From an uncultured Bacillaceae bacterium (lineage in GTDB: Bacteria > Bacillota > Bacilli > Bacillales > Bacillaceae_L): a stretch of DNA of 64,000 nucleotides. The notes beneath the pieces are model-generated. The model made no database searches. It was not told where the DNA came from and worked only from the letters and a program-made list of their open reading frames with translations. Location of the stretch: contig CANMHG010000013.1 of assembly GCA_947497585.1 (NCBI GenBank), forward strand, positions 13,568 through 77,567. Direction: 5' to 3'. Position numbers and translations under genes: made by a program. Positions 3,211 through 44,725 of this stretch are shown in pieces (within the stretch, counting starts at the first letter, position 1; the number at the start of each line of letters is the position of its first letter).

Positions 3211-3226
3211 GTTCATTATAATGAAC
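3211..3226. promoter_or_regulatory. SinR-type operator upstream of cyclase C1
   Basis: Perfect 16-bp palindrome GTTCATTATAATGAAC. Confidence 0.65.
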
Positions 3227-3252
3227 ACTACCTCAAAAAAATTTCACTGTAA

Positions 3253-4476
3253 CTATTGTTCGTTCTTTATAAGTATGGACATTGATGACAGATTCGTAAG
3301 ATTATTTTTTGTTAAATAATCAATTATTGGATTTTTATCAAACGTATGATGTTCCACATTTCTTGAAAATGTTTGAAATAGCTTTACTACTATACTAACG
3401 TTAAAGTCTTCTTTATGATAAGCCAATAATCCTATAGTCTTCATTTTCAATAATGAATAATTGACAACTAGCATACTATACATTTCAAATACATCATTTT
3501 CTTTTGCTACTGGAAATAGATTTTTAAACATGTAGTTCACTAGGTAATTTTCAAAAATATATTCATGTTCTCTTATAAAGGGCTTAAAAAATGTTTCATA
3601 GGTATTCATGTAATCTTCTATACTCGACTCGTCTAGAGTTGGACCAGTAAATTTTATTCCATCTAATGATTCCATTACGCATTCCAAGTATCTTTTATCT
3701 TTAAGACCCGTGAAAATACCTATATCTACAATCTTCCTTAGAATCTGTATCTGATTATTTAAATCTAAGGGCAAATCATGGATCCTGTTAATTATTTCAC
3801 CACTATCAATTAATTGTTCGTAATTTCCTATTATATCAGTTATTTCATTATCTACTAACTTTATTAGGATTTCTTCCATAAACACTCCCAGTATTAGTAA
3901 CCGATCAGTCAAACTATACTTTCTATTTTGTACTATTTTTATTGAAAAATCTCTTAGTTCTAGAAAATAGTAGCGTTCTTTATGGGTACTTTCATATTTA
4001 GATGAATTTATCTTTCTTGATACCAAGTGACGGGTACTGGTTGATTCATTTATTTCTTCAAACTGAATCCCATTTGAATTGAGTAGCACAGTACGAGCTG
4101 CCTCTGGACAAGACACTGTTAATGAACTCTCAAGTCCCCCATTTACAAGGGATGTCACACGAGGGTATGTTGCACATAAATTTGAAAGATAGCCTTCTCC
4201 TTTATCAATATGCACACTACATAATTTTTCCTCAGTAAGTAAAGGACATAACGATTGTGAATTTAGAATAATCTCAGCAAACCATTCTTTGTTTGATTTA
4301 AACTCTATTTTTTTCAGAGATTTCTTTAACTTTTCATTTGATGATACCTGGTATTTCTCATAGGTATCTTGGTCAATTGTAATCCTCCATCCTGAGCAAC
4401 ATGTATCTTCACATGAAGAACCAACACATGAGAATTGTTTTAGATATTGAGGGACTCGAATGGTACGAGTTGACAT
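3253..4476 (-). CDS. FliB-family (flagellin lysine N-methylase-like) Cys-rich Fe-S protein
   Basis: FSCVGSSCEDTCCSGWRITID, CPLL..LCSVH, CATYPR, SCPEA; C-terminal ENYLVNYMF..LFP pattern typical of FliB. Confidence 0.75.
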   Translation of the reverse strand: MSTRTIRVPQYLKQFSCVGSSCEDTCCSGWRITIDQDTYEKYQVSSNEKLKKSLKKIEFKSNKEWFAEIILNSQSLCPLLTEEKLCSVHIDKGEGYLSNLCATYPRVTSLVNGGLESSLTVSCPEAARTVLLNSNGIQFEEINESTSTRHLVSRKINSSKYESTHKERYYFLELRDFSIKIVQNRKYSLTDRLLILGVFMEEILIKLVDNEITDIIGNYEQLIDSGEIINRIHDLPLDLNNQIQILRKIVDIGIFTGLKDKRYLECVMESLDGIKFTGPTLDESSIEDYMNTYETFFKPFIREHEYIFENYLVNYMFKNLFPVAKENDVFEMYSMLVVNYSLLKMKTIGLLAYHKEDFNVSIVVKLFQTFSRNVEHHTFDKNPIIDYLTKNNLTNLSSMSILIKNEQ

Positions 4477-4548
4477 TCATTCTTTCCTTTCTGGGTAAGT
4501 ATTACTTTTACACTTACTCCTTTATTGTAACTTACCTACGGAACGTCT

Positions 4549-4646
4549 TTTCACTATAAAGAACTAGTTTGACAATATCTCGTCAAAATTATTCTTTATT
4601 AAGAACAATATATGTTAAAAATATCATCTTAAAGCTTAGGTGTCAA
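4549..4646 (-). promoter_or_regulatory. sigma-A promoter for the FliB-like gene with two downstream SinR-type boxes
   Basis: TTGACA (4641-4646), 17 nt, TGa-TATTTT (4618-4623); boxes at 4591-4606 and 4549-4564. Confidence 0.65.
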
Positions 4647-4715
4647 TAATAAATGGGCTTTTAAAAAGGAAAAAGGAAAATTATTATTGGGGGTAAGAGG
4701 GACTCTATAGACAAG

Positions 4716-4739
4716 GCCCCTAATTATATTTCTAGGGGC
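4716..4739 (-). terminator. Stem-loop after precursor A2
   Basis: GCCCCTA-N10-TAGGGGC; no strong U-tract. Confidence 0.4.
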
Positions 4740-4767
4740 TAGGTTTAAGAATGCTGGGTATAGAAAC

Positions 4768-4917
4768 TTAACTATCAATATCGTTTCCCCATGTTAAATC
4801 ACTAAATCTTGTGTTAGCAGGGAATGAATCATCGATAAAGTCTCCGGGTTGTGTATTCGCCATCGTCAAGTTTACATCTAGTACCTCAAGAACAGGCTTT
4901 ATCCATTCTTTTTTCAA
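4768..4917 (-). CDS. Lasso peptide precursor A2, 49 aa: MKKEWIKPVLEVLDVNLTM / ANTQPGDFIDDSFPANTRFSDLTWGNDIDS
   Basis: Hand-translated, TTG start after AAAGGAGGTG; paeninodin-like leader WxxPxLEVLDV..TM; C-terminal Ser; immediately after cyclase C2. Confidence 0.92.
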   Translation of the reverse strand: MKKEWIKPVLEVLDVNLTMANTQPGDFIDDSFPANTRFSDLTWGNDIDS

Positions 4918-4932
4918 ACCTATCACCTCCTT

Positions 4933-6876
4933 TCAGGTAAACATTTTATTAATAAATTTATATACTATAAGACTTCTCATTAATATCCTATAATCAGGGT
5001 CGGTCGCGTTTTCTACTCGTGGGCCATTTTCAGCCTTACTAATTGCTACATTTAAGACTTTGGCGTCTATAAATTCAAAAATAAGGTTATCTTTCTTTAG
5101 TTGTTGTATGTCCTTTATATATAATCCCCAATTTGGTTTCATTCGATGAACCCAATCTGCTCCTTGAACTCCACGAATATGTTGGTTTAGTCTGATTTTA
5201 TCTGGCAAATAACTCTGTGTAGCTCTTCGAATAAGAGCACGGTCCATACCATTTTGAACATACTGGTCTTCAGGTAGTGATAAGCAAAAACGAATAACAC
5301 GAATATCATTTGTTGGATCTCGTTTCCAAAGAGAATAACGCAAAGAAAATTTTGTGGAAACTGTATTTGTAGCATTCCAATGAAATACATCTTCAAAGTG
5401 ATTTTTTCTTTGCTTAAAAATATTATCAGTAGAGTACCATCCCGTTTCATCCATACCAAATTTTCTAAGTTTATCGAATACCCTAGTTCGATTTGCAAAT
5501 TCTTGGTTAATTATCTTGGGACTTTTATATTGAGTGGTAAGTGGAAACAACCGATCAATCATAGGAAACGCTTCTCTTACAATAATGGGTAACCTTCTTA
5601 ATCTAGCACCGCCTATATTTTGACTATAATAATTTAATTCTTTAATAAGGCGAAACCACTTCATTTTTTTAAGTAGTATTGCATAATATTCTATTGCCGA
5701 CCCCCAAGAAACACCTAAGTTCCCTCTTCCGCCATTTAAAAGAACTCCAACATTCTCTTTTTGAGCATTCTCAAACATTCCCTTTATCCAAAACGAGTTT
5801 TCAAAAAACTTGTAGGGCATCTCCATTGTTTCTAAAAAATCATCCAATTCCGTGTATGGGCTTTTCCCTTCAAAATCTAAATAATGTGCCTTGACATTTC
5901 CTACATAATTAACTGTTGATTCAATGAAAGGTCGTTCATTAGGCATTAAATATTTTGGGGTGTAATCTATAAAATCAGTGGTTGGAATATAACTAAAAGT
6001 TTGTAATTCTTTTCCTAGTAGTTGTAATTGTTTTGCTGCAAAGCTTACAACTGCTCCAGAATCAAGGCCTCCACTTAATTGAGCCCCCACTTTATGAATA
6101 GTACGTAATCGAGATTTAACAGCTTTACTAAAGACTTCTTGGAAGGCTTCTACATACTCTTCATTAGAATTTAATTTTAATGGTTTGCTGGCATATAAAT
6201 TACAATATCTCTTAATCTTTACCGAATCTCTAGTAATTGAAATAAAATGAGCTGGTGGAATTTGTTTTATATCTTGGTAGGGTGTCATAGAGGAATCAAT
6301 TGTATCTATCACAGTAGTAATTGCTAAATACTCTGCTAACCATTTTTCATTTAATTGTCTCGTTACATCAGGCTGTGTAAGTAACGGTTCTATTGTTGTA
6401 CAAAAAGAAAAGTTCTGATGATTATGACGGTAATAAAGTGTTCTTCCCCCTGAAAAGTCTCTTGCTGCAAATATAGAGTGTGCCCTTTCGTCCCAAATGA
6501 CATATGCAAAGTCACCAACTAGATATTTTGGTGATTCCTCACCCCACTTTTCGTAGCCTCGCAAAATTAACTGACTGTCAGGTATCGATTTCTCTAGTAT
6601 CGGATCGATCTTCAGTAGACCAAATAGTTCTTCACGATTATCAATAATTGCATCAGATACTATTGCGAGCTTTCTCTCGTAATCATAGAAAGGGAGGCTT
6701 TCACCGATTGATTCAGGAGTAATCCATTGCATATGACAACCTAAGAAGACTGTATTATTATTCCACGTTTGAATGTCATCGGCTGGATATCTTTTTAAGG
6801 ACTCCATTAATCTAGTACCATTTTCTATTCGAATAGGTTGCTTATTTAGATGTATAATTCCTGTTATTGCACTCAT
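4933..6876 (-). CDS. Lasso peptide cyclase C2 (asparagine synthetase-like, PadeC type)
   Basis: MSAITG start without catalytic Cys; LSGGLDSG; collinear with C1 (MPYKFFENSFW, RDPTNDIRVIRFCLS shared). Confidence 0.9.
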   Translation of the reverse strand: MSAITGIIHLNKQPIRIENGTRLMESLKRYPADDIQTWNNNTVFLGCHMQWITPESIGESLPFYDYERKLAIVSDAIIDNREELFGLLKIDPILEKSIPDSQLILRGYEKWGEESPKYLVGDFAYVIWDERAHSIFAARDFSGGRTLYYRHNHQNFSFCTTIEPLLTQPDVTRQLNEKWLAEYLAITTVIDTIDSSMTPYQDIKQIPPAHFISITRDSVKIKRYCNLYASKPLKLNSNEEYVEAFQEVFSKAVKSRLRTIHKVGAQLSGGLDSGAVVSFAAKQLQLLGKELQTFSYIPTTDFIDYTPKYLMPNERPFIESTVNYVGNVKAHYLDFEGKSPYTELDDFLETMEMPYKFFENSFWIKGMFENAQKENVGVLLNGGRGNLGVSWGSAIEYYAILLKKMKWFRLIKELNYYSQNIGGARLRRLPIIVREAFPMIDRLFPLTTQYKSPKIINQEFANRTRVFDKLRKFGMDETGWYSTDNIFKQRKNHFEDVFHWNATNTVSTKFSLRYSLWKRDPTNDIRVIRFCLSLPEDQYVQNGMDRALIRRATQSYLPDKIRLNQHIRGVQGADWVHRMKPNWGLYIKDIQQLKKDNLIFEFIDAKVLNVAISKAENGPRVENATDPDYRILMRSLIVYKFINKMFT

Positions 6877-6904
6877 AATTTTTTCTCCCTGACTAACTTA
6901 TGAT

Positions 6905-7044
6905 TTTCACTATAAAGAACAATAGTTAATTTAAACACAAGGATAATTTATAAATTTCAAGTTAATTATCTTTAGTTCCAATAATTTTGTTCTTTATAAG
7001 GAACATCTTCATTTAAAGTTAACACTTTTTCTGAACAGTGTCAA
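6905..7044 (-). promoter_or_regulatory. sigma-A promoter for cyclase C2 with two downstream SinR-type boxes
   Basis: TTGACA (7039-7044), 17 nt, TGt-TAACTT (7016-7021); boxes at 6989-7004 and 6905-6920. Confidence 0.65.
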
Positions 7045-7120
7045 TATTTCAGTTATTAGGAATAGGCCAAAAGGCGAATCAGAAGAAGCTATATTTTTGA
7101 TGGTTATTGGAGAATATAAT

Positions 7121-7146
7121 AGACACTCAAACTAAGATGAGTGTCT
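7121..7146 (-). terminator. Probable terminator at the end of the EPS locus
   Basis: AGACACTCA-N8-TGAGTGTCT. Confidence 0.5.
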
Positions 7147-7180
7147 AAATACCTAATAACAAATTTTATTAACTATTAAT

Positions 7181-8260
7181 TTATAAAACGATATGGTCGA
7201 GGGTTCCTCTTAGAACTTCATTCTCTGTAGTCAATACCGGTTCTCTATCCATATCCCTAATCCATAGTAACCCATCCGGAAGAGGATTAAACTTCGTATC
7301 AAGCGCAGGAAACTTATTGTACAGAATAATATCTTTATAGATCTCAGGCATATTTAATCCTGCTTCTGTAAAGAAATAACATGTCGTAAAAAAGCGCATA
7401 TTTATCTCAGTAGGGTTAGGGAAATCATTTCTGTCATACGTCATATCCACACCGTATACTCCATGAGGCTTCTTATCAATCGCATATATTGTTTCCATAG
7501 CTACTTTGTTCACTGTTTCATCTGAGTAAGTCTCACCTACCCCAGTTATTCCAGTCACACCTGATAGTGTCCGATTACCAAATCCCCAGGACTTTCTTCT
7601 TCTAGTTTGGGCTACAACTAGCTCGCCTTCATACCAAATAGATAACCAAGTAACCGTCTTATCAGACTGGAGTAACTCTGAAGCAGTAAAACTTCCCCAA
7701 CCGTTATAGATATCTATCCAGTTTTGAGCAAACTCATAATCATTTGTAGGTAGTGCTCCTCTTCCACCAGCACCTACTGTAGATCTTAACCAGATTTTCC
7801 CCTCTTCATCTCCTAGATCTTGAAAAGCTTGTTTTAATTCATGTTTATCTCGAATAGGCAGTGTTTTTGGCACCTTAATACCTGTAGCTTCCCAAACCTT
7901 ATAGGATTTATATTTATCTGTACATGCTTCAATCACATCATGATCTGGCATAAATAACTTTGTACCTGTAGCTGTGATTTCATCTCGAAATCTTGAGGCT
8001 TCGAGTATTTCTCTATCATTCATAAAAACAGCTAAACTAGGTTTATCATTATTCATAATACCCAGTAATTCTTTTTTATAATCTTTTCCGAATGCATATT
8101 CATATGGGATGTGTCGCTTAGTTTCAGCCTTCGAAGTATACAAATTATAAGGATTCCTTGATAACCCTATTACTTCGTTCCTAATTTCCGCCTTATTCCA
8201 CGATTTTATAACATTCTCTGCTGGCGAAACCCCGACATCAGTTATTAGTATTTTCTCCAT
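7181..8260 (-). CDS. ATP-grasp (carboxylate-amine ligase-like) protein
   Basis: DKYKSY..W, IKVPKT, GAGGRG loop, GVDMT...TEINMRF pattern. Confidence 0.75.
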   Translation of the reverse strand: MEKILITDVGVSPAENVIKSWNKAEIRNEVIGLSRNPYNLYTSKAETKRHIPYEYAFGKDYKKELLGIMNNDKPSLAVFMNDREILEASRFRDEITATGTKLFMPDHDVIEACTDKYKSYKVWEATGIKVPKTLPIRDKHELKQAFQDLGDEEGKIWLRSTVGAGGRGALPTNDYEFAQNWIDIYNGWGSFTASELLQSDKTVTWLSIWYEGELVVAQTRRRKSWGFGNRTLSGVTGITGVGETYSDETVNKVAMETIYAIDKKPHGVYGVDMTYDRNDFPNPTEINMRFFTTCYFFTEAGLNMPEIYKDIILYNKFPALDTKFNPLPDGLLWIRDMDREPVLTTENEVLRGTLDHIVL

Positions 8261-8278
8261 TTCAGCACCTCTTTATAA

Positions 8279-8893
8279 TTATAGATTCCTAGATATTCCC
8301 TTGTACCTTTCCATACTGAAGTGATTCTTTGAACTTACTCCTTCTTTTTTAAATACCTTTTTTATTGTTACTAGTAAAATTTTCATATCCAGCCAAACAG
8401 ATTGATTATTAACATACCAGATATCTAATTCAAATTTTTCTTCCCAGTTAATTGCATTCCGTCCGTTTATTTGAGCCCAGCCAGTTATCCCGGGTTTGAC
8501 TTCATGTCTTCGAGCCTGTTCTTCGGTATACAAAGGTAAATACTCCATTAATAATGGACGGGGACCTACTAAACTTAAATCACCCTTAATGACATTGAAT
8601 AGTTGTGGTAACTCATCTAAACTATATTTACGTAACAAGATTCCTAGTTTGGTTAATCTGTATTTTCCAGGTAATAGATTGCCTTGATTATCTTTCTTAT
8701 CATTCATTGTTCTAAACTTATATATATATAAAGGCTTTCCATATAAACCTGGTCGGACTTGTTTAAATAATATTGGTGAACCCATCTTTATATAAATAAT
8801 TGCGGAAATCAGAATTAAAAATGGCGAAAAAATAATGACTAATGATAGGGCACCAAATAAATCTATTAATCTTTTCAAAGTATCCACCTCCAT
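8279..8893 (-). CDS. Priming sugar-phosphate transferase (EpsL/PglC family)
   Basis: KRLIDL, FKQVRPG, YKFRTM, SLDELPQL, VGPRP, KPGITGWAQ. Confidence 0.92.
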   Translation of the reverse strand: MEVDTLKRLIDLFGALSLVIIFSPFLILISAIIYIKMGSPILFKQVRPGLYGKPLYIYKFRTMNDKKDNQGNLLPGKYRLTKLGILLRKYSLDELPQLFNVIKGDLSLVGPRPLLMEYLPLYTEEQARRHEVKPGITGWAQINGRNAINWEEKFELDIWYVNNQSVWLDMKILLVTIKKVFKKEGVSSKNHFSMERYKGISRNL

Positions 8894-8919
8894 AACATTA
8901 CTTTGAAAAATATTTTAAG

Positions 8920-9750
8920 TTAATTTATATCTCTTTCTCTAACTCGGTTTAAGGGATGATTGTAGAGGAAAAAGTATTGTCTTCTCTTTTCGATATATTT
9001 AGGAGTCATGATCTTTATTTCTTTTCCTTCTACTACATTGATTGCATTACTTTGTAGGAATTCTCTATACCTTGATGAATAATGTAGTTCTATAAAATCA
9101 TAGGCTTCAGTTAACTCGAACTTTCGCCTTGTGTAATGATGTGCATCAGATGCTACGAAATGAACAAGTTCATGATCTAGGAGATGTCTAGAAAAGTTTT
9201 TCAACCTATTCCCATGCAGTCCTAATATACTTGCAGCTGTTACTTGTATAAGTATTCCACTTTGTACAAGCTTATAAATTTCAGAGGGATTTTTTCTTAG
9301 AATTCTATTTCTCTCCGGGTGAGCAAGAATTGGAAGAAACCCCATTTCTTTTAACTGGGAGAAAACATCTACTATATATGATGGATAATTTTTAGAATGT
9401 GGCTCCATCAATAAGTATTTTCCTGTGTTATTTAATGTTAAAAAACTATCGAGCTTTTCTTCTAAATCATATTGAATTTCTTCATGTAAATGAAATTCAA
9501 TTCCTGGCATTACAACTAAAGGGATATTTTTCTCTTGCAATAATTGATTTAGTTTATCAACCATTTTTATTATAGTAGCAGGATCATTTTCGTAAAAATA
9601 CTGATGGTGTTGATGTTTATGATGTGGAGTTGCAATCACATGTGTTATTCCTGTCTCTACGGCTTGTTTGGCCAACAATATTGCTTCTTCCCAATCATGT
9701 GGACCATCATCTAGTCCAGGTAAAATGTGGTTATGAATGTCCACAATCAT
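8920..9750 (-). CDS. PHP-family tyrosine-protein phosphatase (CpsB/YwqE type)
   Basis: DIHNHILPGLDDG, ATPHH, AHPERN, ASDAH; start reassigned to ATG 9750 after AAGGAG. Confidence 0.9.
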   Translation of the reverse strand: MIVDIHNHILPGLDDGPHDWEEAILLAKQAVETGITHVIATPHHKHQHHQYFYENDPATIIKMVDKLNQLLQEKNIPLVVMPGIEFHLHEEIQYDLEEKLDSFLTLNNTGKYLLMEPHSKNYPSYIVDVFSQLKEMGFLPILAHPERNRILRKNPSEIYKLVQSGILIQVTAASILGLHGNRLKNFSRHLLDHELVHFVASDAHHYTRRKFELTEAYDFIELHYSSRYREFLQSNAINVVEGKEIKIMTPKYIEKRRQYFFLYNHPLNRVRERDIN

Positions 9751-9800
9751 TTTCTTGCTCCTTTCGAAAAACACTAACAAACCCCCACAAAGAACAACAG

Positions 9801-9816
9801 GTTCTTTATAAAGAAC
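9801..9816. promoter_or_regulatory. SinR-type operator
   Basis: Perfect palindrome GTTCTTTATAAAGAAC upstream of the phosphatase. Confidence 0.65.
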
Positions 9817-9847
9817 AATACTATACTATTACTTTTATTGCAATACC

Positions 9848-10603
9848 TTATTCATAAATTGCATTTGCATATTTTCTCTTAAAAAGACATACTCCTGCAT
9901 TTTCTAATATTTTTACCATTAATTCAGAATTAGGATAGTTTATTTCTTTATAAAGATTTATTACCTTATTCAAATCATATTGAACTCTCACTATTGAAGT
10001 TTGAACACAATCTTCCTCAATATCAACGAGAGCATAGGATGATTGATTCACACCATCAAATGGAAGCCCAACACTTCCTATATTTATTATACATTTCCCA
10101 TTTATGTATCTTATATATGGCTTATGTATATGTGCATAGATATATATATTTGCATTATTGCTCATTAACTTTTCAGTTAGTAAATCATCACTTTCTTGTG
10201 GTGAAACGATTTCAAATAAGCTTTTAGGTGTGGCATGGAATGCATGAATTTTAGCTCTACCAAATTCTAATTCTAATTCGGTTGGTAGATTTTCAAGGTA
10301 GCTAACATCTTTAGACTCTAGTTTAGAGACAGTCCATTCTCTTTCGGTACTCATTATTTCTAATGCTGAATCAGGAACCTCACCTTGCCTAATTCCACGA
10401 ACCACCCATTCATCTGCGTTACCTTTTATTACTTCGGTATTTAAGGTTCTAACTAAATCAAGTGACTTTTTAGGTTCTGGTCCCCTAAAGCACAGGTCTC
10501 CTAAAACATAAACTTTGTCAACGTTTCTTTCTTTAATATCCTTCAATACCGCTTCTAATGCTGTTGCATTTCCATGAATATCTGAAATAAATGCTAGTTT
10601 CAT
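9848..10603 (-). CDS. Metallophosphoesterase
   Basis: SDIHGN, LGDL, GNAD, FHA, AHIH, GSVG motifs. Confidence 0.88.
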   Translation of the reverse strand: MKLAFISDIHGNATALEAVLKDIKERNVDKVYVLGDLCFRGPEPKKSLDLVRTLNTEVIKGNADEWVVRGIRQGEVPDSALEIMSTEREWTVSKLESKDVSYLENLPTELELEFGRAKIHAFHATPKSLFEIVSPQESDDLLTEKLMSNNANIYIYAHIHKPYIRYINGKCIINIGSVGLPFDGVNQSSYALVDIEEDCVQTSIVRVQYDLNKVINLYKEINYPNSELMVKILENAGVCLFKRKYANAIYE

Positions 10604-10633
10604 TTGTTGTACCCCATTTCTAAAAATACTTTA

Positions 10634-10665
10634 AGGAGATGGTCCCCTTTTTTAGACCACCTCCT
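10634..10665 (-). terminator. Internal terminator-like hairpin
   Basis: On the minus strand AGGAGGTGGTC-N10-GACCATCTCCT (11 bp with one G.U), then an A/U-rich tract. Confidence 0.5.
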
Positions 10666-10722
10666 ATGAATTTTAGACTTTATACCACATTCGTATACTT
10701 AGAATTTCTTTATTAGATTATT

Positions 10723-11874: not shown

Positions 11875-11909
11875 TAATATTCCTCCATCTGGTACCATGA
11901 CCACAAACT

Positions 11910-11925
11910 ATTCATTATAACGAAC
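11910..11925. promoter_or_regulatory. Degenerate SinR-type operator
   Basis: ATTCATTATAACGAAC in a short intergenic gap. Confidence 0.45.
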
Positions 11926-11941
11926 AATTCCGCAAAAAAAA

Positions 11942-13006: not shown

Positions 13007-13018
13007 TTAATTTCCCCC

Positions 13019-14822: not shown

Positions 14823-14857
14823 GTTTCATTCATCCAATCTATAAGGTTAATGTTTTA

Positions 14858-15760
14858 CTACTTAACAAGTTCAATTTCTTTCTCTTTGTGTTTATTCATT
14901 TCTACTAGTCTAAGTAAATATTGACCATACTCACTTTTCTTTAATGGCTCTGCTAATTCTAATAACTTCTCTTCGGAAATATAGCCTTTGTTATAAGAAA
15001 TTTCCTCCAAGCAAGCTACTTTCAAAAGCTGACGTTTTTCTATAATTTCAATAAATTGGGATGCCTCTAACAATGATTCGTGTGTTCCTGTATCAAGCCA
15101 TGCAAACCCACGACCTAGTAATTCCACCTTTAACTTATCTCTTCTTAGATATTCATTTAAAATATCTGTAATTTCTAACTCCCCTCTAGCAGATGGCTTC
15201 ACACCTTTTGCAATCTCAACAACTTGATTGTCAAAGAAATAAAGGCCAGTAATGGCATAATTTGATTTAGGGAAAATTGGTTTTTCTTCAATGGACATTA
15301 CTTTTTTATCAGAATTAAACTCTACTACACCAAATCGTTCTGGGTCCCTAACATTGTAACCAAATATTGTAGCTCCATTAAGTTGTTTAGTTACCCTTTC
15401 AAGAGTAGAAATAAATTCATGCCCATAGAAGATATTGTCACCCAGAATTAAGCTAACATCATCTGCACCAATAAACTCCTCACCAATGATAAAGGCCTCA
15501 GCTAAACCATTCGGCTTTTCTTGTATCGAGTAGGATAATTGGATACCTAATTCACTTCCATCACCTAACAATTGTTCAAAACGTGGAACATCCTCTGGTG
15601 TAGATATAATTAAAATATCTTTGATACCTGCAAGCATTAACACTGAAATTGGATAATAAATCATAGGTTTATCATAAATAGGAAGTAATTGCTTTGATAT
15701 AGATCTTGTTAATGGATACAACCTTGTTCCGCTTCCACCTGCTAAAATGATTCCTTTCAT
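14858..15760 (-). CDS. rfbA: Glucose-1-phosphate thymidylyltransferase
   Basis: [47 protein letters not shown]. Confidence 0.96.
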
Positions 15761-15811
15761 CGTAGGACCACCTCATCAATTTTTTATATAAAATTTAAAA
15801 AACACCTCAAA

Positions 15812-19453: not shown

Positions 19454-19566
19454 TTGGGCATCAAACCCGTCCTCACAGCATACCACCGACACCTAGTATC
19501 TAAGGTTAAATTTAAACCCACAGCATGATCGAGTATCTCCATTAGTATAGGTAAGGAGACATCACC
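19454..19566 (-). ncRNA. EAR/epsC-like cis-regulatory antiterminator RNA, copy 2
   Basis: 113-nt near-copy of 43837-43949 with compensatory stem changes; in a leader behind an internal promoter of the EPS locus. Confidence 0.72.
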
Positions 19567-19580
19567 TATTTTTAAATAAC

Positions 19581-19663
19581 GTTCTTTATAATGAACAAAA
19601 AAGTTGAAAAAAATTCGATTATAAATTTAAAACCATTATAATTCTTTATTAAGAACAAAGCAA
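19581..19663 (-). promoter_or_regulatory. Internal sigma-A promoter with a SinR-type box filling the spacer, plus a second box
   Basis: TTGCTT (19658-19663), 17 nt, TATAAT (19635-19640); boxes at 19641-19656 and 19581-19596. Confidence 0.7.
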
Positions 19664-19681
19664 TTGTTTATTACCTAAAAC

Positions 19682-29643: not shown

Positions 29644-29668
29644 GCATCATTTCCCTCCTTTCTAAGTC

Positions 29669-30697: not shown

Positions 30698-30709
30698 CTT
30701 TGTTCCCCC

Positions 30710-31900: not shown

Positions 31901-31903
31901 AGA

Positions 31904-33010: not shown

Positions 33011-33012
33011 GG

Positions 33013-34167: not shown

Positions 34168-34189
34168 GTTGACACCTCCTTAGAATAAT

Positions 34190-35245: not shown

Positions 35246-35255
35246 TCACACACCC

Positions 35256-35414
35256 CTATGTGTTCTCATTGGTATCTATAACTCCTAAGAACTGATTTCT
35301 AATTTCTTCAATTGCTTCAAGTAGTTTCATAGATTCTGTTTCATTTCCTTTTTGATACATAGTTAATAAAATCTCTTGAAGTTGTTCAGCAGTTAGTTTT
35401 TCTGAAATACTCAT
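35256..35414 (-). CDS. Hypothetical 52-aa protein MSISEKLTAEQLQEILLTMYQKGNETESMKLLEAIEEIRNQFLGVIDTNENT
   Basis: Hand-translated; AGGAAGG RBS; fills the galE-GNAT gap in operon orientation. Confidence 0.6.
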   Translation of the reverse strand: MSISEKLTAEQLQEILLTMYQKGNETESMKLLEAIEEIRNQFLGVIDTNENT

Positions 35415-35446
35415 TTTCTTATCCTTCCTACAAACATTCTACTCTT

Positions 35447-36490: not shown

Positions 36491-36566
36491 TTTTTACACA
36501 CCTCACTTATGAAAATAAAAAAGTAAATTGATACGGAGATCAATTTACTCAAAAGAATTTTGCTTA

Positions 36567-37649
36567 TTATAGTTGTAAATAATCACTACGATATTGGATA
36601 AATAAGGTCATTACACTTTCAAAATAATAATATAGAAAATAACAACTAATAATTCCAAAGTATACCAACTTTTGCTGTTTTTCATGAAAAAGCATAACTA
36701 CCCATGAAATTAAAATTAAGGAATATAGACTAAAGTAAATAGAAAATCTAGCAAAAATCCAATTCTGAGTAGAGATTATCATAAAGATAAAGCCAATCAT
36801 CGCCATATTAACAATATAGTCACTATTAGGAAAAATTTGTCTGAGCTTTTCCCTACCTAAAAACGCAAGCAATAACGGTACAGCATCCACAGCTACTCTA
36901 ATAATATTTGCTCCACCTTCAGTTGAATTCTGATAAACTCCATACTCTGTATCTTCTATTGCGGAAAATAAAATTGCTGAAAATTGATTGAATCCTAAAA
37001 CGATAATTACCGCTCCTGCCATAAGAAAAAATGTTGATTTCGACCATGCTTTTGCACGAACTATGAAATAAATAGGGATTAGTACTAATGCACTTTGGTG
37101 AAAAAAAGATGCAAAAACGACTACTAGAATATATTTCATCCAATTACCATTAATGATAAATTTTGTTGCAGTGAATATGATTGCAGCTGCAAGTACTTGC
37201 CTAATCCCATTCATTGATACTAAAAACAAGCCACCCGTTATATATACATACAGACTCAACTCTAACATTCTTGAATACTTATAAAGAACAAGCACAATAC
37301 ACATATTTGTTATCAATGCAGTTGTAAATACCATAATTTGTGCATCTTCAGATATCATTTTTAATAACATCTGAAGAATTCCAAATCCAATGTCCTTATG
37401 AGTTAAAATGAATTCCCATGTAAATTCATTTCTCTCATATATCAGCCTATAAAAAAAGGTATCTCCAATATTCCTTCTTAGACCTGAAACTATAACTAAA
37501 GAAGATAAAGCAATTAGGACCAATATTTTATTTGGTTTAATTGGCACATCTGAGTAGTTAGTCGTTGTAATGGTCCGAAAGGTTGAGAAATATCTCGAAA
37601 ATAGCGAAAACAAAAAAACTATGGCTAGATTAGTCCATAGAATAGTCAT
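36567..37649 (-). CDS. EpsG-family polysaccharide polymerase (Wzy)
   Basis: Multi-TM; SGLRRNIGDT, SMNGIRQ, FHQSAL, WIFARF. Confidence 0.85.
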   Translation of the reverse strand: MTILWTNLAIVFLFSLFSRYFSTFRTITTTNYSDVPIKPNKILVLIALSSLVIVSGLRRNIGDTFFYRLIYERNEFTWEFILTHKDIGFGILQMLLKMISEDAQIMVFTTALITNMCIVLVLYKYSRMLELSLYVYITGGLFLVSMNGIRQVLAAAIIFTATKFIINGNWMKYILVVVFASFFHQSALVLIPIYFIVRAKAWSKSTFFLMAGAVIIVLGFNQFSAILFSAIEDTEYGVYQNSTEGGANIIRVAVDAVPLLLAFLGREKLRQIFPNSDYIVNMAMIGFIFMIISTQNWIFARFSIYFSLYSLILISWVVMLFHEKQQKLVYFGIISCYFLYYYFESVMTLFIQYRSDYLQL

Positions 37650-37679
37650 ATCATATGTCCTTTCAGAAAAAGGTTTACT

Positions 37680-38561
37680 TTATATTTTAGCCGGTTTTGC
37701 TTTTGTTATTATTAGTAGATATAGTAGTAATCCAAATGGAATTGCAAATAAAGTCAGCCCTTTTTGAGGGGTTTCTGCTAAAAATGATTTATTTTTATCT
37801 AGTAAACTGCTTGATACATAGTGAATAGCCTGCTTAAATTTAAACCCTAAACTTGCAAATGGCAGTTTCATTAGTTCTTTACGATAAAATGCAAAACCTT
37901 TAGGATTTTTACGATATTGACTCAACATATTCAAAGACGATCCATCTGGAAGATATTCTACACAACATACCACTTCATTCATCAGCAGCATTTCATATTC
38001 CATATCTAGTTTATAATACTTGTACGCTAAGCCAACATATCTTTCATTTTCAAATAGTGGATATGGATATTTTTTAGTTAAATCTGTTCGATAGACCAGC
38101 TTTTTGTCACCGGAAACTCCATGCTTATAATAGAGATGAAATAGAGTTGAAATCTTCAGACCTTCTGGTAGTTTAGTACCAATAATTTTTCCATCCGTAT
38201 AGGAATCTAGCGCTATTATACCACCTACTGTTTTACTACCATTTCTTTGCCAAAAAGATAGTATTTTTTCAACAGCATCATCTGGCATATAATCATCAGA
38301 ATCTATACAAACATTTAACTCAGTATCAATAAGCTCATAAGCTGTGTTATGAGCACCATGCATCCCTTGATTTGTTTGGTAATGGTATCTAATTTCAACT
38401 AGATTCTCTTGGATCCATCCATCAACAAGTATGGATGTATTATCAGTTGAACCATCGTCAATGATTAACCAAATAAAATCATTTGAGGATTGACGCTTTA
38501 AGCTTTCATAGCAATGATGAAGACAATATGCTCGATTATAGGTTGGTGTAAATACTGTCAA
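37680..38561 (-). CDS. Glycosyltransferase family 2
   Basis: VFTPTYNR, IDDGSTD, CIDSDD. Confidence 0.9.
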   Translation of the reverse strand: MTVFTPTYNRAYCLHHCYESLKRQSSNDFIWLIIDDGSTDNTSILVDGWIQENLVEIRYHYQTNQGMHGAHNTAYELIDTELNVCIDSDDYMPDDAVEKILSFWQRNGSKTVGGIIALDSYTDGKIIGTKLPEGLKISTLFHLYYKHGVSGDKKLVYRTDLTKKYPYPLFENERYVGLAYKYYKLDMEYEMLLMNEVVCCVEYLPDGSSLNMLSQYRKNPKGFAFYRKELMKLPFASLGFKFKQAIHYVSSSLLDKNKSFLAETPQKGLTLFAIPFGLLLYLLIITKAKPAKI

Positions 38562-39681
38562 CTTTTTCAGTTACATCTCCCCCGAACCTTTGGTAATAGT
38601 CTTCAATAAATAATGCTGTTTTTCTAATATCATATCCTTTTAGAGAAATTTCCTTTAAAGGTGACTTTCTTGAGTAACTTTTTTGCTTCCATTCAATAAT
38701 GCTGTTCATCCACTGGTTCATTCTATCCAGTGATGCATAATGAACTAGACCCACTCCCAAATCAACTTCTTTTGTAATAGATTGAGATATTATACAAGGT
38801 AACCCTGTTGCTTGTGCTTCAACTAAAGTAACTGGTAAACCCTCGTGTAATGATGGGAAAACAAATAAATCGAAGGCTTGTAGAAGGTCAGATATATCAC
38901 CTCTTACTCCTAGCAGTTTAACCTTTCCGTCCAGATTAAGATGCTTTACTTTTTCCTCAATTCTATTTCGAAGAACTCCATCACCAACTAAAACTAGAGT
39001 TGCATTTGGGACTTTCTTAATTAACCCTGCAAATATATCTAGCAAAAATGTATGGTTTTTTTGATGATTAAATCTGCCAACATGACCAATAACTAATGTG
39101 TCTTCTTTTATCTGTAATGACTCTCTTATCTTAGATCTAACGGTTTTAGAAAATTTAAATCGATTAGTTTCTATCCCATTATTAAGAATGACAGCTTTCT
39201 GAGCTCGAATTCCAAACAACCATTTCGCTGCATCATTTGAACAAGCAAATAGAGAGTTTGCATTAAAACGAATATAACTTCCGGAGATTGATTTATATAA
39301 TTTCGCAGCAATGCCACCTTCACTTTGAGTGTTATGGCTATGTGCAATTCTAACTGAAATACCAGACTTTTTTGCTGCACGAAGGACAAAACCACTCATC
39401 TTATCCATATGAGAATGAACAATTTTATAATGATTTAAACGAAAAAAACTATCTAAAGCTTTAAGGTAAACCGAATGACCAGTCTCTGTAACATATGGTA
39501 TTCTGTGAATCTTACCACCCATCTCACTAATTTCTTTATCAAACACACCTTCCTTACAAGTAAGAAAGTCAAATTGAATTTTCGATCGATCCACATTCCG
39601 GTAAAGATTCATTAGAAGCGTTTCGGCTCCACCGCGATTCATATTTACTACCACATGCAAGATTCTTAATGGGCCGCCCAC
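38536..39681 (-). CDS. Glycosyltransferase family 4 (EpsF-like)
   Basis: MNRGGAETLLMN, GHVGRFNHQKNH, PSLHEGLPVTLVEAQ. Confidence 0.9.
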   Translation of the reverse strand: MGGPLRILHVVVNMNRGGAETLLMNLYRNVDRSKIQFDFLTCKEGVFDKEISEMGGKIHRIPYVTETGHSVYLKALDSFFRLNHYKIVHSHMDKMSGFVLRAAKKSGISVRIAHSHNTQSEGGIAAKLYKSISGSYIRFNANSLFACSNDAAKWLFGIRAQKAVILNNGIETNRFKFSKTVRSKIRESLQIKEDTLVIGHVGRFNHQKNHTFLLDIFAGLIKKVPNATLVLVGDGVLRNRIEEKVKHLNLDGKVKLLGVRGDISDLLQAFDLFVFPSLHEGLPVTLVEAQATGLPCIISQSITKEVDLGVGLVHYASLDRMNQWMNSIIEWKQKSYSRKSPLKEISLKGYDIRKTALFIEDYYQRFGGDVTEKVDSIYTNL

Positions 39682-40844
39682 TTTAGTTCCTCCATTTCTT
39701 TCATATACCTTCTGTAAATCCTACTCTTTTGGTCAAGTACATTTGTAACGCCATAGTTTTGTTCAATCATTAGCCTTGAAGATTTGCCAAGCTTATTTCT
39801 CATATATTCACTTTGAGCAAGCTCAATAATTTTAGAAGCAAATTTCCCTACATCTAAAGGGTTATTGATAAATCCGGTTTCATTATTCTTTACTAGCTCT
39901 CTATGCCCTCGATTCTCGGTTGCCACCACTGGAAGCCCACAGGCCATCGCTTCCAAAATATTTACTGGTAACCCTTCACGAAGACTCGAAGCAACAGCTA
40001 AATCGCTCATTTTCACAAGCAACTCAACATCGTTTCTCAACCCTAGAAAATGAACATACTCATCAATCCCTAGTTTTCTTGCTAGTGCTTTACATTCCTC
40101 CAATAAGGGACCTTCTCCAGCTAGCAAAAGCTTTGCATTAGGTATGTCACCCTTAACTTTGGTAAACGCATTTATGAGTAATTGCTGATTTTTATTCTTA
40201 TTAAATTCAGCAGCATATAATAGAAGAAAGTCTTCTGGACTATAACCAAAAGATCGTCTAATCATATTTTTACGCAACTGATCCACAGGCCTATATACAT
40301 CTGTATTCACCCCTACACCATGAACGTGTTCAATTACACCTGCTTTAAACCCATGACTTTTAGATAGGTTGTAATCCTCACTATTAATCGTTATTAAACA
40401 GTCAGTATAGGAAGCAAGCATTCTTTCAATTGGATAGTAGAGTAGCCAATTAACTAACGGAGCACCTTTGCAAAAATGAAAACCATGTGCTGTATAAATT
40501 ACCTTTGTTCCATTCTTTCTTGCAGCCCTAGCAGCAATGCGAGCTAGTACACCACCCATCGGGGTATGACAATGTATAATCTGGTATTGGTTATTATCAA
40601 TGGTCTCCTTTAACTGGTTATAAGCAGTGAGATTCTTAACCTTAAAAGGTGACCGTTGAATTGGAATATCATATTTCTCATCAACAAAAGGGAGCTCTAG
40701 GTTACCACTAGCTGCAATGTGAACTTCCCAGCCTTGTTCTTTAAACCATTTTAGATAAGGAATGTGGAAGGCTTTAAAGTGATAATCAACGGTAGCACAA
40801 AAAAGCACACGCTTTTTTGTCGTCTGCTTTCCATTCGTCATCAT
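39666..40844 (-). CDS. Glycosyltransferase family 4 (EpsD-like)
   Basis: [32 protein letters not shown]...EAMA. Confidence 0.9.
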
Positions 40845-41728
40845 TTTACTAGCTCTTTATCTAACACAGTTTTGAAATAATCTAATAAATTGTTACGCAA
40901 ATCGTCACGTTTTAATGCAAACTCTAATGTAGTTTGAATAAACCCCATTTTTTCACCAACGTCGTAACGAGTTCCTTCAAAATCATAAGCATATACTGCT
41001 TCGTGTTGGTTTAAACCAGCGATTGCATCTGTTAACTGAATTTCTCCCCCAGCACCTGGAACCTGGTTTTCAAGAATATTAAATATCCTAGGATTTAGAA
41101 TATAACGTCCCATAATTGCTAGATTTGATGGTGATTCCTCTTGTCTAGGTTTCTCTACAAGACTATTTACGCTGAAGAAACGTTCACCGATTTTGTTTCC
41201 ATCGACAATTCCATATCTTGATACTTCATTTTCAGGTACAGTTTGAACACCTAAGATAGAAGCATTATAACGTTTATATTGCTCAATCATCTGCGTTAAA
41301 CATGGCCTTTCTGCAGAGACAATATCATCTCCTAATAGAACAGCAAATGGTTCATCACCAATGAATTTACGTGCACACCAAATCGCATGACCTAATCCCT
41401 TAGGTTCTTTTTGACGAATATAATGGATATCAACTAGTTTCGATGATTTTTGTACTTCTTCTAATAATTCAAATTTACCTTTATCAAATAAATTCTGTTC
41501 TAGCTCAAACGAATGATCGAAGTGATCTTCAATCGCACGTTTACCTTTACCAGTAACAATGATTATATCCTCAATCCCAGAATCTACAGCTTCTTCAATA
41601 ATATATTGAATTGTCGGTTTATCAACAATCGGTAACATTTCTTTTGGCATTGCTTTGGTTGCTGGTAGAAATCTCGTTCCAAGACCGGCAGCTGGGATAA
41701 TGGCTTTTCTTACTCTTTTCATCAACAT
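40841..41728 (-). CDS. galU: UTP-glucose-1-phosphate uridylyltransferase
   Basis: [35 protein letters not shown]. Confidence 0.96.
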
Positions 41729-41736
41729 TGCTCCTT

Positions 41737-43587
41737 TTAACCTGGGATAGATAGTAGTTTCTGGGCGACAGGCTTACGATTAGCTAGCTTTAAAAGTTCA
41801 TCCCTAAGTTCTTCTTTTGATAGTTTAGTATAAACAGAAATTAGCTCTTCAATTTCGTTAATATACAGGTGAGCGGATTTTCCTACATAAATTTTTGGAT
41901 ACACCTGGTTTTCATGAACTTCCTCATCCTTTAGTAACTCCTCAAAAAGCTTTTCACCTGGTCTCTTTCCGGTATACTCAATTCCGATTTCATCAATTGA
42001 GTTACCTGAAAGCTTAATTAGGTTCTTGGCTAAATCCACTATTTTAACTGGATCACCCATATCAAGGACGAAGACTTCTCCACCTTTTGCTAGAGAACCA
42101 GCTTGGATCACTAATCTTGATGCTTCAGGAATTGTCATAAAATAGCGAACCATTTCAGGATCTGTAACAGTAACCGGTCCGCCTTTTTCGATTTGCTTTT
42201 TAAAGAGAGGAATGACACTTCCTCGACTTCCTAATACATTGCCGAACCGAACTGCTACAAACTTTGTTTTACTATATCGGTCCATATTTTGAATCAGCAT
42301 TTCTGCTAATCGCTTTGTTGCTCCCATTACACTTGTAGGGTTAACCGCTTTATCTGTTGAAACCATTACAAATGTTTCTACACCGTGCCAACTTGCAGCC
42401 TGAGCGACATTCCTCGTACCAATAATGTTATTCTTAACTGCTACATCAGGATTTTTCTCCATTAACGGAACATGCTTGTGTGCAGCTGCGTGATACACAA
42501 CATTTGGACGATGTGCATTCATAACTCTCATCATTTGCTTCTCATCTTGTAGCTCTGCTATTTCAGTTACGAACTCAATTTTTGACTGTCTGAAAGTCTC
42601 TTTTAATTCCATTTCAATGGTATAGATGCTGTTTTCTCCGTGCCCTAGAAGGATAAGCTGTTTTGGATTAAATTTAGAAATCTGTCTACAAATCTCTGAA
42701 CCTATTGAACCACCAGCCCCAGTTACTAGAACCACCTTATCAGTTACATATTCAGAAATGCTTTCAATATCTAGATCAACCGGTTCTCTCCCTAGTAGAT
42801 CCTCTACTTGGACATCTCGGAACTGACTGACTGAAACCTTTCCAGTGATTAAGTCCTCTAACATTGGGAGGATTTGAGTCTTAGCATTTGTTTTTGCACA
42901 TTCTTGAAAGATGACATTAAGTTCCCGTTTACTTAATGAAGGAATGGCAATAATAATATTTTCTATTGATAGTTCCTTTACAGCACATTCAATTTGATTA
43001 ACCCCACCTAATACTGGTAATCCTAAAATATCTAGCTTCTGCTTTTTTACACTGTCGTCGATGAACGCAACTGCTAATAGATCGCCCTCATTGTTTTTTA
43101 AAAGTTGTCTTGCAACCATTCGACCTGCTGAACCAGCTCCAACAATAAGTGTTCTCCTTCTGTTTTCCGGCTTATTGATTATAGAATTTCGATATAATCT
43201 AAGAGTAAAACGTGAGCCACCCATTAATAACATATGAAGCATATAAGTCACGGTAAGAAGCCGAAAGTGAACCTGTTGATTCATTACTAACTGAACGATC
43301 GCAGCCAATAATAAAGAAAAGCCTACAACTCTGAGTATGATTAGTAATTCACCAATACTTGCATACTCCCAAGCTTTCTTATAAAGTTTAAATTTTAATG
43401 AGAAAAAATGATGACTAAAAAGAATGACAGCTGAAGTGATTATGATTTGTAGGTTGAATACATGAATGTCAGCATTCACTAAAAAGCTACTAAAGAAAAT
43501 TGCAGTAAAAACGATACACGAATCTATCAAGATAAAAAACGATAGCCTCTGACGGTAGGTCATAGCTTTCCCCCTTCCAATAACCAT
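41737..43587 (-). CDS. Polysaccharide biosynthesis protein, NDP-sugar 4,6-dehydratase (EpsC/CapD/PglF type)
   Basis: N-terminal TM helices; [46 protein letters not shown]. Confidence 0.93.
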
Positions 43588-43593
43588 TTATCC

Positions 43594-43734
43594 TTACTCT
43601 GCATGGACTAATCTCGTTTGTATCGCATATTCAATCAGTTTTTTAATATCCTCCAGTTGTTCCTTTGTTGCATCTTGTTTGATGTATCTAACAGCTTTTT
43701 TAATTGATTTTGGAAATTTATCAAATTCCTTCAT
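43594..43734 (-). CDS. Hypothetical 46-aa protein MKEFDKFPKSIKKAVRYIKQDATKEQLEDIKKLIEYAIQTRLVHAE
   Basis: Hand-translated; AAGGAG upstream; first ORF after EAR copy 1. Confidence 0.6.
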   Translation of the reverse strand: MKEFDKFPKSIKKAVRYIKQDATKEQLEDIKKLIEYAIQTRLVHAE

Positions 43735-43836
43735 AAAAAGTGCTACAGCTCCTTATTTTATTAGTTGAATAAATTAAAGTTCTTAACTATAAGGTCTTGT
43801 AAGGAAACCTTATGGTTAAAAGCTTTAAATTTAAAA

Positions 43837-43949
43837 TTGGGCATCTAACCCACCCTCACACCACACTTTTGACAACAGATGTGTCTAAGGTTTTTTCAAC
43901 CCACAGCATGATCGAGTGCCTCCATCGATAACGGTAAGGAGACATCACC
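43837..43949 (-). ncRNA. EAR/epsC-like cis-regulatory antiterminator RNA, copy 1
   Basis: Multi-hairpin 113-nt element upstream of an epsC-like gene (canonical EAR context); duplicated at 19454-19566. Confidence 0.75.
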
Positions 43950-43970
43950 GCATAATAAAACGAACATTAA

Positions 43971-44139
43971 TTTCTCAATAAAGAACACTATAGTAAAAAT
44001 ATAACCAACATATGTCTGGTTTAGTTTGATTTATTCTTTTTAAAGAACATTTCCTGTGAAAAAATACTTTTTTACTTACTTTTGTTCAGTTTGGAAAACT
44101 TATTACCCTCAGTTTAGTTCTTTATACAGAACAAGTCAA
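43971..44139 (-). promoter_or_regulatory. Main EPS sigma-A promoter with three SinR-type boxes
   Basis: TTGACT (44134-44139), 17 nt, TAAACT (44111-44116) with box 44117-44132 in the spacer; further boxes at 44033-44048 and 43971-43986. Confidence 0.7.
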
Positions 44140-44173
44140 TCTGTTTTTTACATTTTTTTGAATTTATTAATAC

Positions 44174-44518
44174 CTATGAACTATAGTTTCTTTCTTTTCC
44201 AAGGGTTAAAGCTAGTTCTTTTAACTCATCAACTGTAATGTTATATTTTTTTAATTCTAAAGATAGACGTTTTAATTCTAGGTCAAATGAATCAGGTTCT
44301 TCTTGGTTGGCAGTTGGTTTCAGATCACCAAAGAAATAGGATATATCAATATCAAAGTACTTTGATAAGTCCTCTAGAAAGTCAATCGCCGGTTTTCTAC
44401 TTCCACGTTCAATTTTTGATAAATTGCTGTAGTTAAATTGAATAGCCTCTCCTAATTCCTTTAACGTCATTCCACGGTCAATTCTTAATTCCTTAATACG
44501 GTCTCCTATGTGCTTCAC
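44174..44518 (-). CDS. XRE-family HTH transcriptional regulator
   Basis: IGDRIKELR...TLKELGE...SNLSKIERG; GTG start after GAGGTG. Confidence 0.85.
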   Translation of the reverse strand: MKHIGDRIKELRIDRGMTLKELGEAIQFNYSNLSKIERGSRKPAIDFLEDLSKYFDIDISYFFGDLKPTANQEEPDSFDLELKRLSLELKKYNITVDELKELALTLGKERNYSS

Positions 44519-44557
44519 CTGTATTCTATCACCTCTTATGTACTCACAGAACATTAC

Positions 44558-44608
44558 GTTCTTTATAAAGAATAAAATTACTATAACACGGATTGTCAGT
44601 TTGAACAA
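44558..44608 (-). promoter_or_regulatory. Promoter of the XRE gene with a SinR-type box over +1
   Basis: TTGTTC (44603-44608), 17 nt, TGt-TATAGT (44580-44585); box 44558-44573. Confidence 0.55.
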
Positions 44609-44626
44609 TATTATTTTCTAATATAC

Positions 44627-44725
44627 GTTCACTAAAAAGAACGATTGGTTTTTTATAGTAATTTAGATATATTTATCATCTTTATTAAAATAGTTCTTTA
44701 AAAAGAACATATTATTCTGTATAAT
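44627..44725 (+). promoter_or_regulatory. Two SinR-type boxes and the probable sinR promoter
   Basis: Boxes at 44627-44642 and 44693-44708; TATAAT at 44720-44725 with the -35 position inside the second box. Confidence 0.55.

Follow-up and report, generated by a model that had tools for sequence, protein, structure and literature searches.

In Bacillus subtilis, the SinR/SinI system acts on the operons epsA-O and tapA-sipW-tasA, and several SinR sites are present per promoter. The half-site is GTTCTYT, the bound inverted-repeat duplex is TTTGTTCTCTAAAGAGAACTTA, and the inverted arrangement with 2 bp between the heptamers leads to about tenfold tighter SinR binding (PMC3163267). In Bacillus thuringiensis, krsEABC, the locus for the lipopeptide kurstakin, belongs to the SinR regulon as determined with microarrays (PMC3909190). 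Paeninodin-type lasso peptide clusters, with the gene order C-A-K-B1-B2-N-D, are often found beside capsular polysaccharide loci; their roles are unknown, and a biofilm link was described in 2026 as speculative and untested, while reverse transcription quantitative PCR with P. alginolyticus showed that lasso and eps genes rise together (PMC13381572). Here, we analyzed 15 copies of a 16-bp palindromic box in a stretch of 64,000 nt (in the following, the window) from an uncultured Bacillaceae bacterium (assembly GCA_947497585.1, contig CANMHG010000013.1, abbreviated C13, positions 13568-77567). The genome is a draft of 4.17 Mb with 36% G+C, and the window carries lasso peptide genes, a FliB-like gene and an exopolysaccharide (EPS) locus. 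As a whole, the observations are best explained if the palindromes are operators for SinR-family repressors that would unite the lasso and EPS genes in one regulon, and we assign this reading a probability of about 0.8.

The locus has features in common with all of these systems. As in B. subtilis, eps genes are predicted targets and several sites are present per promoter. In contrast to B. subtilis, lasso clusters, i.e. clusters for peptides that are made by the ribosome and modified after translation, and a FliB-like gene are among the predicted targets, nearly all sites are full palindromes, and a second SinR paralog is encoded. As in B. thuringiensis, SinR would co-regulate a secondary-metabolite peptide with biofilm functions, but kurstakin is a non-ribosomal lipopeptide, whereas the lasso peptides are ribosomal. 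Furthermore, SinR does not control eps in B. thuringiensis, whereas the strongest sites are found at eps in the present case, where the regulon is predicted from its operators. The gene order, the gene families and the co-localization with capsular or exopolysaccharide loci agree with the described paeninodin-type clusters. No regulator or operator was named for the latter (PMC13381572), and what is added here is the conserved SinR-type box at the lasso promoter.

An initial annotation of the window had listed 15 boxes of the type GTTC-N8-GAAC that start at 3211, 4549, 4591, 6905, 6989, 9801, 11910, 19581, 19641, 43971, 44033, 44117, 44558, 44627 and 44693, and every one of them was found at its position. 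Their consensus is GTTCTTT-AT-AAAGAAC, and they turned out to be exactly those sequences that match the full consensus GTTCTTTATAAAGAAC. The similarity to the B. subtilis SinR site, which had also been noticed before, is close, as the bound duplex GTTCTCT-AA-AGAGAAC has an equal half-site and the same 7-2-7 geometry. Perfect GTTC-N8-GAAC sequences were observed eight times in the window, compared to an expectation of 0.61, and none of 100 shuffles reached eight. Seven of the eight have an AT-rich spacer. The eighth, at 15574, is located in a coding sequence, has a GC-containing spacer and looks like a chance occurrence. When one mismatch in the arms was allowed, 38 matches were found and 17 were expected. 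All 15 boxes are intergenic, as had been claimed, when box 44558 is counted with the GTG start codon at 44518 of the adjacent gene; it lies within the open reading frame (ORF) only when the latter is extended to a TTG at 44608. The GTG has a ribosome-binding site, GAGGTGA, 9 nt upstream, and box 44558 then precedes the gene by 40 nt. The sequences on either side of the boxes are mutually unrelated, with the exception of those at two RNA leaders of the EAR type, and thus the boxes are not copies of one duplicated segment. An origin from a duplicated promoter or a mobile repeat was rejected accordingly.

A genome scan for intergenic enrichment had been proposed in the initial annotation. Only the six boxes at 43971-44693, which belong to the regulators and the eps promoter, were used to train a position weight matrix (PWM), and the PWM was applied to the whole genome. 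The other nine boxes were held out of the training, and the intergenic status was derived from a crude ORF mask. Genome-wide, 23 matches scored at least 16; 21 of these are intergenic, and box 44558 is one of the remaining two. Eight of the nine held-out boxes ranked within positions 1-21 of the genome, and box 11910 ranked 37. In the intergenic DNA (609 kb), the 21 matches with scores of at least 16 compare with 1.43 +/- 1.26 in 30 dinucleotide shuffles (maximum 5), and 15 matches with scores of at least 18 compare with 0.33. The comG-yqg backbone (45.2-64 kb), in which no boxes had been seen by eye, does not contain a PWM match scoring at least 13. Because of the ranking of the held-out boxes, the excess over the shuffles and the empty backbone, it can be stated that the motif is not equally frequent in coding DNA or in other AT-rich intergenic DNA, which the initial annotation had regarded as the result that would speak against its proposal.

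These numbers also bear on the idea that the boxes are not operators at all, but RNA hairpins in 5′-leaders or chance sequences that are AT-rich or promoter-like. In the transcripts, many boxes do occupy about +1 to +20, their cores resemble TATAAA or TATAAT, and one box was flagged as a terminator-like stem. Yet matches scoring at least 16 are about 15-fold, and those scoring at least 18 about 45-fold, more common than in dinucleotide shuffles of AT-rich intergenic DNA, it is the arm sequence GTTC...GAAC itself that is conserved, without compensatory variation, and the boxes 44117 and 19641 reside in promoter spacers, which are never transcribed. We regard this explanation as extremely improbable.

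Several of the top matches are located outside of the window. Two boxes on C15 precede a gene for a Wzz chain-length protein and a gene for a BY-kinase-type ATPase. A further box, C3:47417, lies beside a UDP-glucose dehydrogenase gene and about 280 bp upstream of a cyclic di-GMP (c-di-GMP)-I riboswitch. This riboswitch (C3:47697-47781, equal to L003 3698-3782; 68.8 bits) precedes ORFs without a family match, and the repressor site and the riboswitch may act in series at this locus. Two additional top matches, C13:9156 and C13:9716, are located left of the window in the tail of a lasso module. By its content, the set of genes carrying boxes looks like a biofilm-matrix regulon.

In the EPS locus, the highest score of the genome (23.9) was obtained for box 9801-9816, which has the perfect consensus GTTCTTTATAAAGAAC and lies upstream of the gene for a CpsB/CapC-type phosphatase. 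It is followed by an additional direct half-site GTTCTTT. Box 11910-11925, ATTCATTATAACGAAC, is situated in a short gap within the EPS gene array and scores 14.5; it is the least certain of the 15 boxes. The other boxes are arranged in groups. Boxes 19581 and 19641 (19581-19656) are located upstream of the second of two epsC (EAR) RNA leaders (19455-19567, minus strand; RF01735, 95.8 bits), and boxes 43971, 44033 and 44117 (43971-44132) upstream of the first copy (43838-43950, minus strand; RF01735, 108.2 bits); the gathering score of the family is 42. Hence two to three SinR-type copies precede each epsC/EAR leader, and each leader begins 14-21 nt downstream of a box, the distance between box 19581 and the 5′-end of its EAR leader being 14 nt. 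Three more boxes, 44558, 44627 and 44693 (44558-44708), occupy the divergent region between a gene for an XRE-family regulator and the gene for a SinR paralog. The first EAR copy, together with a 46-codon ORF, precedes an EpsC/CapD-like gene (41737-43587; Polysacc_synt_2, 415 bits). The small ORF (43590-43730, minus strand; MKEFDKFPKSIKKAVRYIKQD...) lies between the leader and the EpsC/CapD-like gene and has the ribosome-binding site AAGGAG. The presence of two separate EAR antitermination leaders in the polysaccharide region, each behind its own promoter with boxes, suggests that this region comprises two long operons or two glycan loci, and not one.

The lasso genes are located on the minus strand. 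Module 1 includes an HPr-kinase-like lasso peptide kinase (9-935; PF07475, 40 bits, cutoff 33), the paeninodin-family lasso precursor A1 (1023-1196; NF033524, 41.7 bits, cutoff 27) and the lasso cyclase C1 (1196-3175), which probably starts with the ATG at 3163. The best model for the cyclase was NF033535, with 384 bits under its cutoff of 525. Module 1 extends beyond the left end of the window with B1 (PqqD; NF033536, 122 bits, cutoff 80), B2 (NF033537, 99 bits, cutoff 33), a nucleotidyltransferase and an ABC exporter. With a PadeA-family precursor, split B1 and B2, an asparagine-synthetase-like cyclase and an HPr-kinase-like kinase, the cluster is of the paeninodin type. The second module consists of the precursor A2 (4768-4926; NF033524, 41.4 bits, cutoff 27), which is followed by a terminator-like hairpin (4716-4739), and the asparagine-synthetase-like cyclase C2 (4933-6876). 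Between the two modules, a homolog of FliB-type lysine-N-methylases is encoded (3253-4476, minus strand; NF038110, 306.5 bits, cutoff 85). Box 3211-3226, GTTCATTATAATGAAC, lies in the 77-bp gap between the stop codon of the FliB-like gene and C1 and precedes the ATG at 3163 by about 48 nt; its PWM score is 18.0, and its rank as a held-out box is 16. The FliB-like gene is preceded by boxes 4549-4564, TTTCACTATAAAGAAC, and 4591-4606, ATTCTTTATTAAGAAC, and C2 is preceded by boxes 6905-6920 and 6989-7004 (GTTCTTTATAAGGAAC). Three further proteins are encoded in the tail of module 1 (L001 8576-9692, minus strand), namely one of the VanZ family, a membrane protein of 104 aa and a Cys-rich protein of 71 aa.

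The initial annotation had placed many boxes on predicted -35, -10 or +1 positions. For boxes 44117, 19641, 4591, 6989, 44693 and 9801 this placement could be upheld by reading of the strands and by cross-genome alignment; a generic scanner did not contribute to it, as described below. Two boxes fill the spacers of minus-strand promoters, i.e. box 44117 that of TTGACT-17-TAAACT (44139-44111) and box 19641 the 17-nt spacer of TTGCTT-17-TATAAT. In the case of box 44693, there is an overlap with the -35 element of TTTAAA-17-TATAAT (44697-44725, plus strand). At the FliB-like gene and at C2, the boxes are located further downstream: the minus-strand promoter TTGACA(4646-4641)-17-TG-TATTTT(4623-4618) is followed after 11 nt by box 4591, and TTGACA(7043-7038)-17-TGtTAACTT, also on the minus strand, after about 10 nt by box 6989. 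The second boxes are 42-93 bp away from the first. The promoter and box layout of C2 is repeated in 63 other loci. A cross-genome alignment anchored on the distal box revealed a TTGACA -35 element, a 17-nt spacer and a TG-extended -10 element that ends 6-14 nt before the box. The distal box thus usually spans about +1 to +20, and the promoters of C2 and the FliB-like gene are alike in this respect.

The linkage of boxes and lasso genes was followed across the Bacillales. Orthologous cyclases with 50-65% identity are present in 12 of 40 relatives. In 13 fetched loci with cyclases of this identity, the genes for C1, C2 and the FliB-like protein are again directly preceded by high-scoring boxes. 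A wider sample comprised 80 lasso loci from a scan of named genomes, among them Bacillus, Neobacillus, Peribacillus, Virgibacillus, Halobacillus, Paenibacillus, Cohnella and other genera. In 65 of the 80 loci, a box scoring at least 14 was found within 400 bp upstream of the cyclase, whereas the shuffles yielded 0.19 such loci on average and at most 2. This 400-bp bin alone contains 116 of about 260 matches. Boxes also recur where the cluster ends, and 43 matches across the 80 loci are located there, about +6.8 to +7.2 kb from the start of the cyclase. In some relatives (L024 1-5200, L028 2800-7700, L031 13200-18400, L036 2800-7200), a second unit lies beside the lasso cluster, flanked by high-scoring boxes. 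It encodes a kinase, an ABC exporter and a nucleotidyltransferase that are 23-35% identical to the lasso versions, and it resembles the LPP clusters of PMC13381572.

The canonical SinR of this organism is encoded at C13:8222-8557, 5 kb left of the window (E 2e-42 to 1b0n_A). An ORF of 44 aa at C13:7973-8107 has the SinI model NF046031 as its sole match (33.5 bits, cutoff 80) and is found at the position expected from the order yqhG-sinI-sinR. Left of the window, a gcvT leader and yqhH-yqhG-sinI-sinR follow each other, with sinI-sinR at C13:7973-8557, and the remaining lasso genes (B1, B2, nucleotidyltransferase, ABC exporter, VanZ family) converge on this group. The gcvT/yqhH-yqhG-sinI-sinR ... 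comG synteny, the putative small SinI gene next to sinR, and a SinR that combines a helix-turn-helix (HTH) with a SinI-like C-terminal domain are all as in B. subtilis. As sinI-sinR adjoins the tail of module 1, the lasso and EPS block, about 50 kb in size, is found between sinR and comG, which is the place of tapA-sipW-tasA in B. subtilis. The lasso cluster adjoins yqhH-yqhG-sinI-sinR also in seven of the 13 loci of the relatives, and in several Paenibacillus-type loci a SinR-like gene is divergent from the cyclase gene.

In B. subtilis, sinI is under the control of Spo0A. The present sinI, in contrast, is located behind a c-di-GMP riboswitch. This element of the c-di-GMP-I family (C13:7847-7939, L001 7847-7939; RF03167, GGC variant, 67.7 bits) precedes the sinI start by 34 nt and is located 5.6 kb left of the window. 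A c-di-GMP riboswitch (RF01051 or RF03167) precedes sinI also in all seven relatives with yqhG-sinI-sinR, and one ahead of sinI has already been listed for B. methanolicus MGA3 (PMC4342826).

As the regulator, the initial annotation had named the local SinR homolog encoded at 44814-45179 (plus strand). This protein of 121 aa, here called SinR2, has an HTH_3 domain and a C-terminal SinI-type domain (PF08671, 36.4 bits, cutoff 31.4) and aligns to 1b0n_A with an E value of 2e-28 (residues 2-108). The recognition segments were compared by identity to the B. subtilis SinR sequence, KSYLSSIERNLQTNPS. They are nearly identical to it in SinR (KSYLSSIERNLQSNPS) and SinR2 (KSYLSYIERNLQNNPS), and that of the canonical SinR is the closer of the two. 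Both proteins align to 1b0n_A residues 108-109 and retain the tetramerisation Trp, which is W104 in SinR (PMC6123443). The assignment of SinR2 to the SinR family was thus justified, but SinR2 is a paralog with 49% identity to the canonical SinR, which is encoded outside of the window, and relatives without SinR2 keep the boxes.

It is therefore worth considering whether SinR2 alone reads the boxes, without an involvement of the canonical SinR, as was originally proposed. The gene lies between the EPS locus and comG, its control region contains three boxes, and both its recognition helix and its C-terminal domain are SinR-like. However, among the close relatives, SinR2 orthologs are confined to two of the genera. 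The genomes G006, G008, G010 and G029 do not have a SinR2 ortholog (the best matches, with 45-54%, are of the canonical type), and they keep high-scoring boxes at the lasso genes. Paenibacillus and the other box-bearing genera have a SinR of the canonical type as well, and the recognition segment of the canonical protein is nearer to that of B. subtilis. A role of SinR2 as the only reader is thus unlikely. The retention of the boxes in the four genomes indicates that the canonical SinR would be sufficient, and it is more likely to be the primary binder.

No SinI gene adjoins the SinR2 gene. Directly downstream of SinR2, a truncated-looking homolog of class D sortases is encoded (45224-45745, plus strand; 65.6 bits, below the cutoff of 140). 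As a SinR paralog with SinR-type boxes in its promoter region and a location beside the eps locus, SinR2 resembles SlrR, the SinR-repressed SinR paralog of B. subtilis. It differs from SlrR in its length of 121 aa without a C-terminal extension. SinR2 and the XRE protein mentioned above were both rejected as SlrR orthologs, as they reached 86 and 29 bits, respectively, with the model NF046032, the cutoff of which is 250.

The XRE-family regulator (44174-44518, minus strand; 114 aa from the GTG at 44518) had also been suggested for binding assays with the boxes. Its best match in the PDB is 9sf2_A (E 2e-13), and its gene occupies the position that slrR has relative to eps in B. subtilis. It represents the possibility that the boxes are bound by a non-SinR protein, either this one or an unlinked factor, and that the resemblance to SinR sites is coincidental. 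XRE proteins commonly read short AT-rich palindromes, and this gene lies beside three boxes. Nevertheless, its similarity to SinR is weak, its recognition segment, YSNLSKIERGSRKPAI, is unlike that of SinR, and thus it is an unlikely binder of the boxes. In addition, the half-site and the spacing are exactly those of the SinR operator, SinR genes adjoin lasso clusters, and boxes co-occur with SinR orthologs. The latter were present in 34 of the 35 lasso genomes tested, and because of this near-ubiquity the co-occurrence is weakly informative. The only genome without a SinR ortholog was Sporosarcina sp. BP05 (L059), and its 13.9-kb lasso locus does not contain a box scoring at least 14. Altogether, a binder from outside the SinR family is very unlikely.

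Several results weigh against the proposed SinR regulon. First, promoter-like sites were no more common than in shuffled sequences according to a generic promoter and terminator scanner. The scanner was therefore uninformative, and the promoter assignments rest on the reading of the strands and the cross-genome conservation. Second, no convincing promoter was found by reading of the sequence at boxes 3211 and 11910, a -35 element being the missing part upstream of box 3211, and box 11910 has a low score. Because a clear promoter was not found, these two boxes may be roadblocks, an internal one in the case of 3211, or weak sites or sites at a weak promoter. Third, in 15 of the 80 lasso loci the 400 bp upstream of the cyclase are free of boxes, and 14 of these genomes encode SinR, so that the link between box and lasso cluster is frequent, but not universal. 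Last, judged by sequence, SinR and SinR2 are both candidate binders.

Nevertheless, the predicted regulon is well supported by the statistics and by the conservation at the level of the order. The shared regulon of the initial annotation could be retained in that boxes are found at both lasso modules, at the gene for the FliB-type methylase and at the EPS promoters, and that this linkage is kept across genera, whereas its choice of the regulator could not. From these data we infer binding, repression, the primary binder and co-induction with the matrix genes, for which the following mechanism is proposed. The canonical SinR would bind to the boxes as a tetramer or as dimers on paired sites, and the spacing of the paired boxes is in line with the proposal that SinR tetramers bind to several sites (PMC3163267). 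Sigma-A promoters would be blocked by bound SinR either in the spacer between -35 and -10, as at the eps boxes 44117 and 19641, or at about +1 to +20, as at C2, at the gene for the FliB-like protein and at most of the lasso promoters elsewhere. The second box at a distance of about 40-95 bp may allow cooperative binding or looping. The putative antagonist SinI, encoded just upstream of SinR behind the c-di-GMP-I-type riboswitch, would titrate SinR, which would lead to a joint de-repression of the EPS operons with their EAR leaders, the unlinked Wzz and tyrosine-kinase genes, both lasso modules and the FliB-like gene. With three boxes at its own gene and a recognition helix that is almost identical, SinR2 probably recognizes these sites as well, and a secondary loop would result.

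For the order as a whole, it appears somewhat probable that paeninodin-type lasso clusters and the neighboring LPP clusters are core and ancient members of the SinR/SinI regulon throughout the Bacillales, with SinI being gated by a c-di-GMP riboswitch in this lineage. A literature search that joined lasso peptides with SinR did not retrieve anything relevant. With the predicted regulon, ribosomal peptides would join the matrix genes and the one lipopeptide as targets of SinR, and a known repressor-operator system would gain a new target class. The natural role of the lasso peptides of Firmicutes is unknown, and native hosts often do not yield a detectable product. A conserved SinR-type operator points to a specific regulator that can be tested, and it predicts that the peptides are made at the same time as the matrix, downstream of SinI and possibly of c-di-GMP. 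If this is true, lasso peptides would be products of the biofilm state, and removal of sinR or induction of SinI would be a general switch for clusters that are silent in the laboratory, in many genera.

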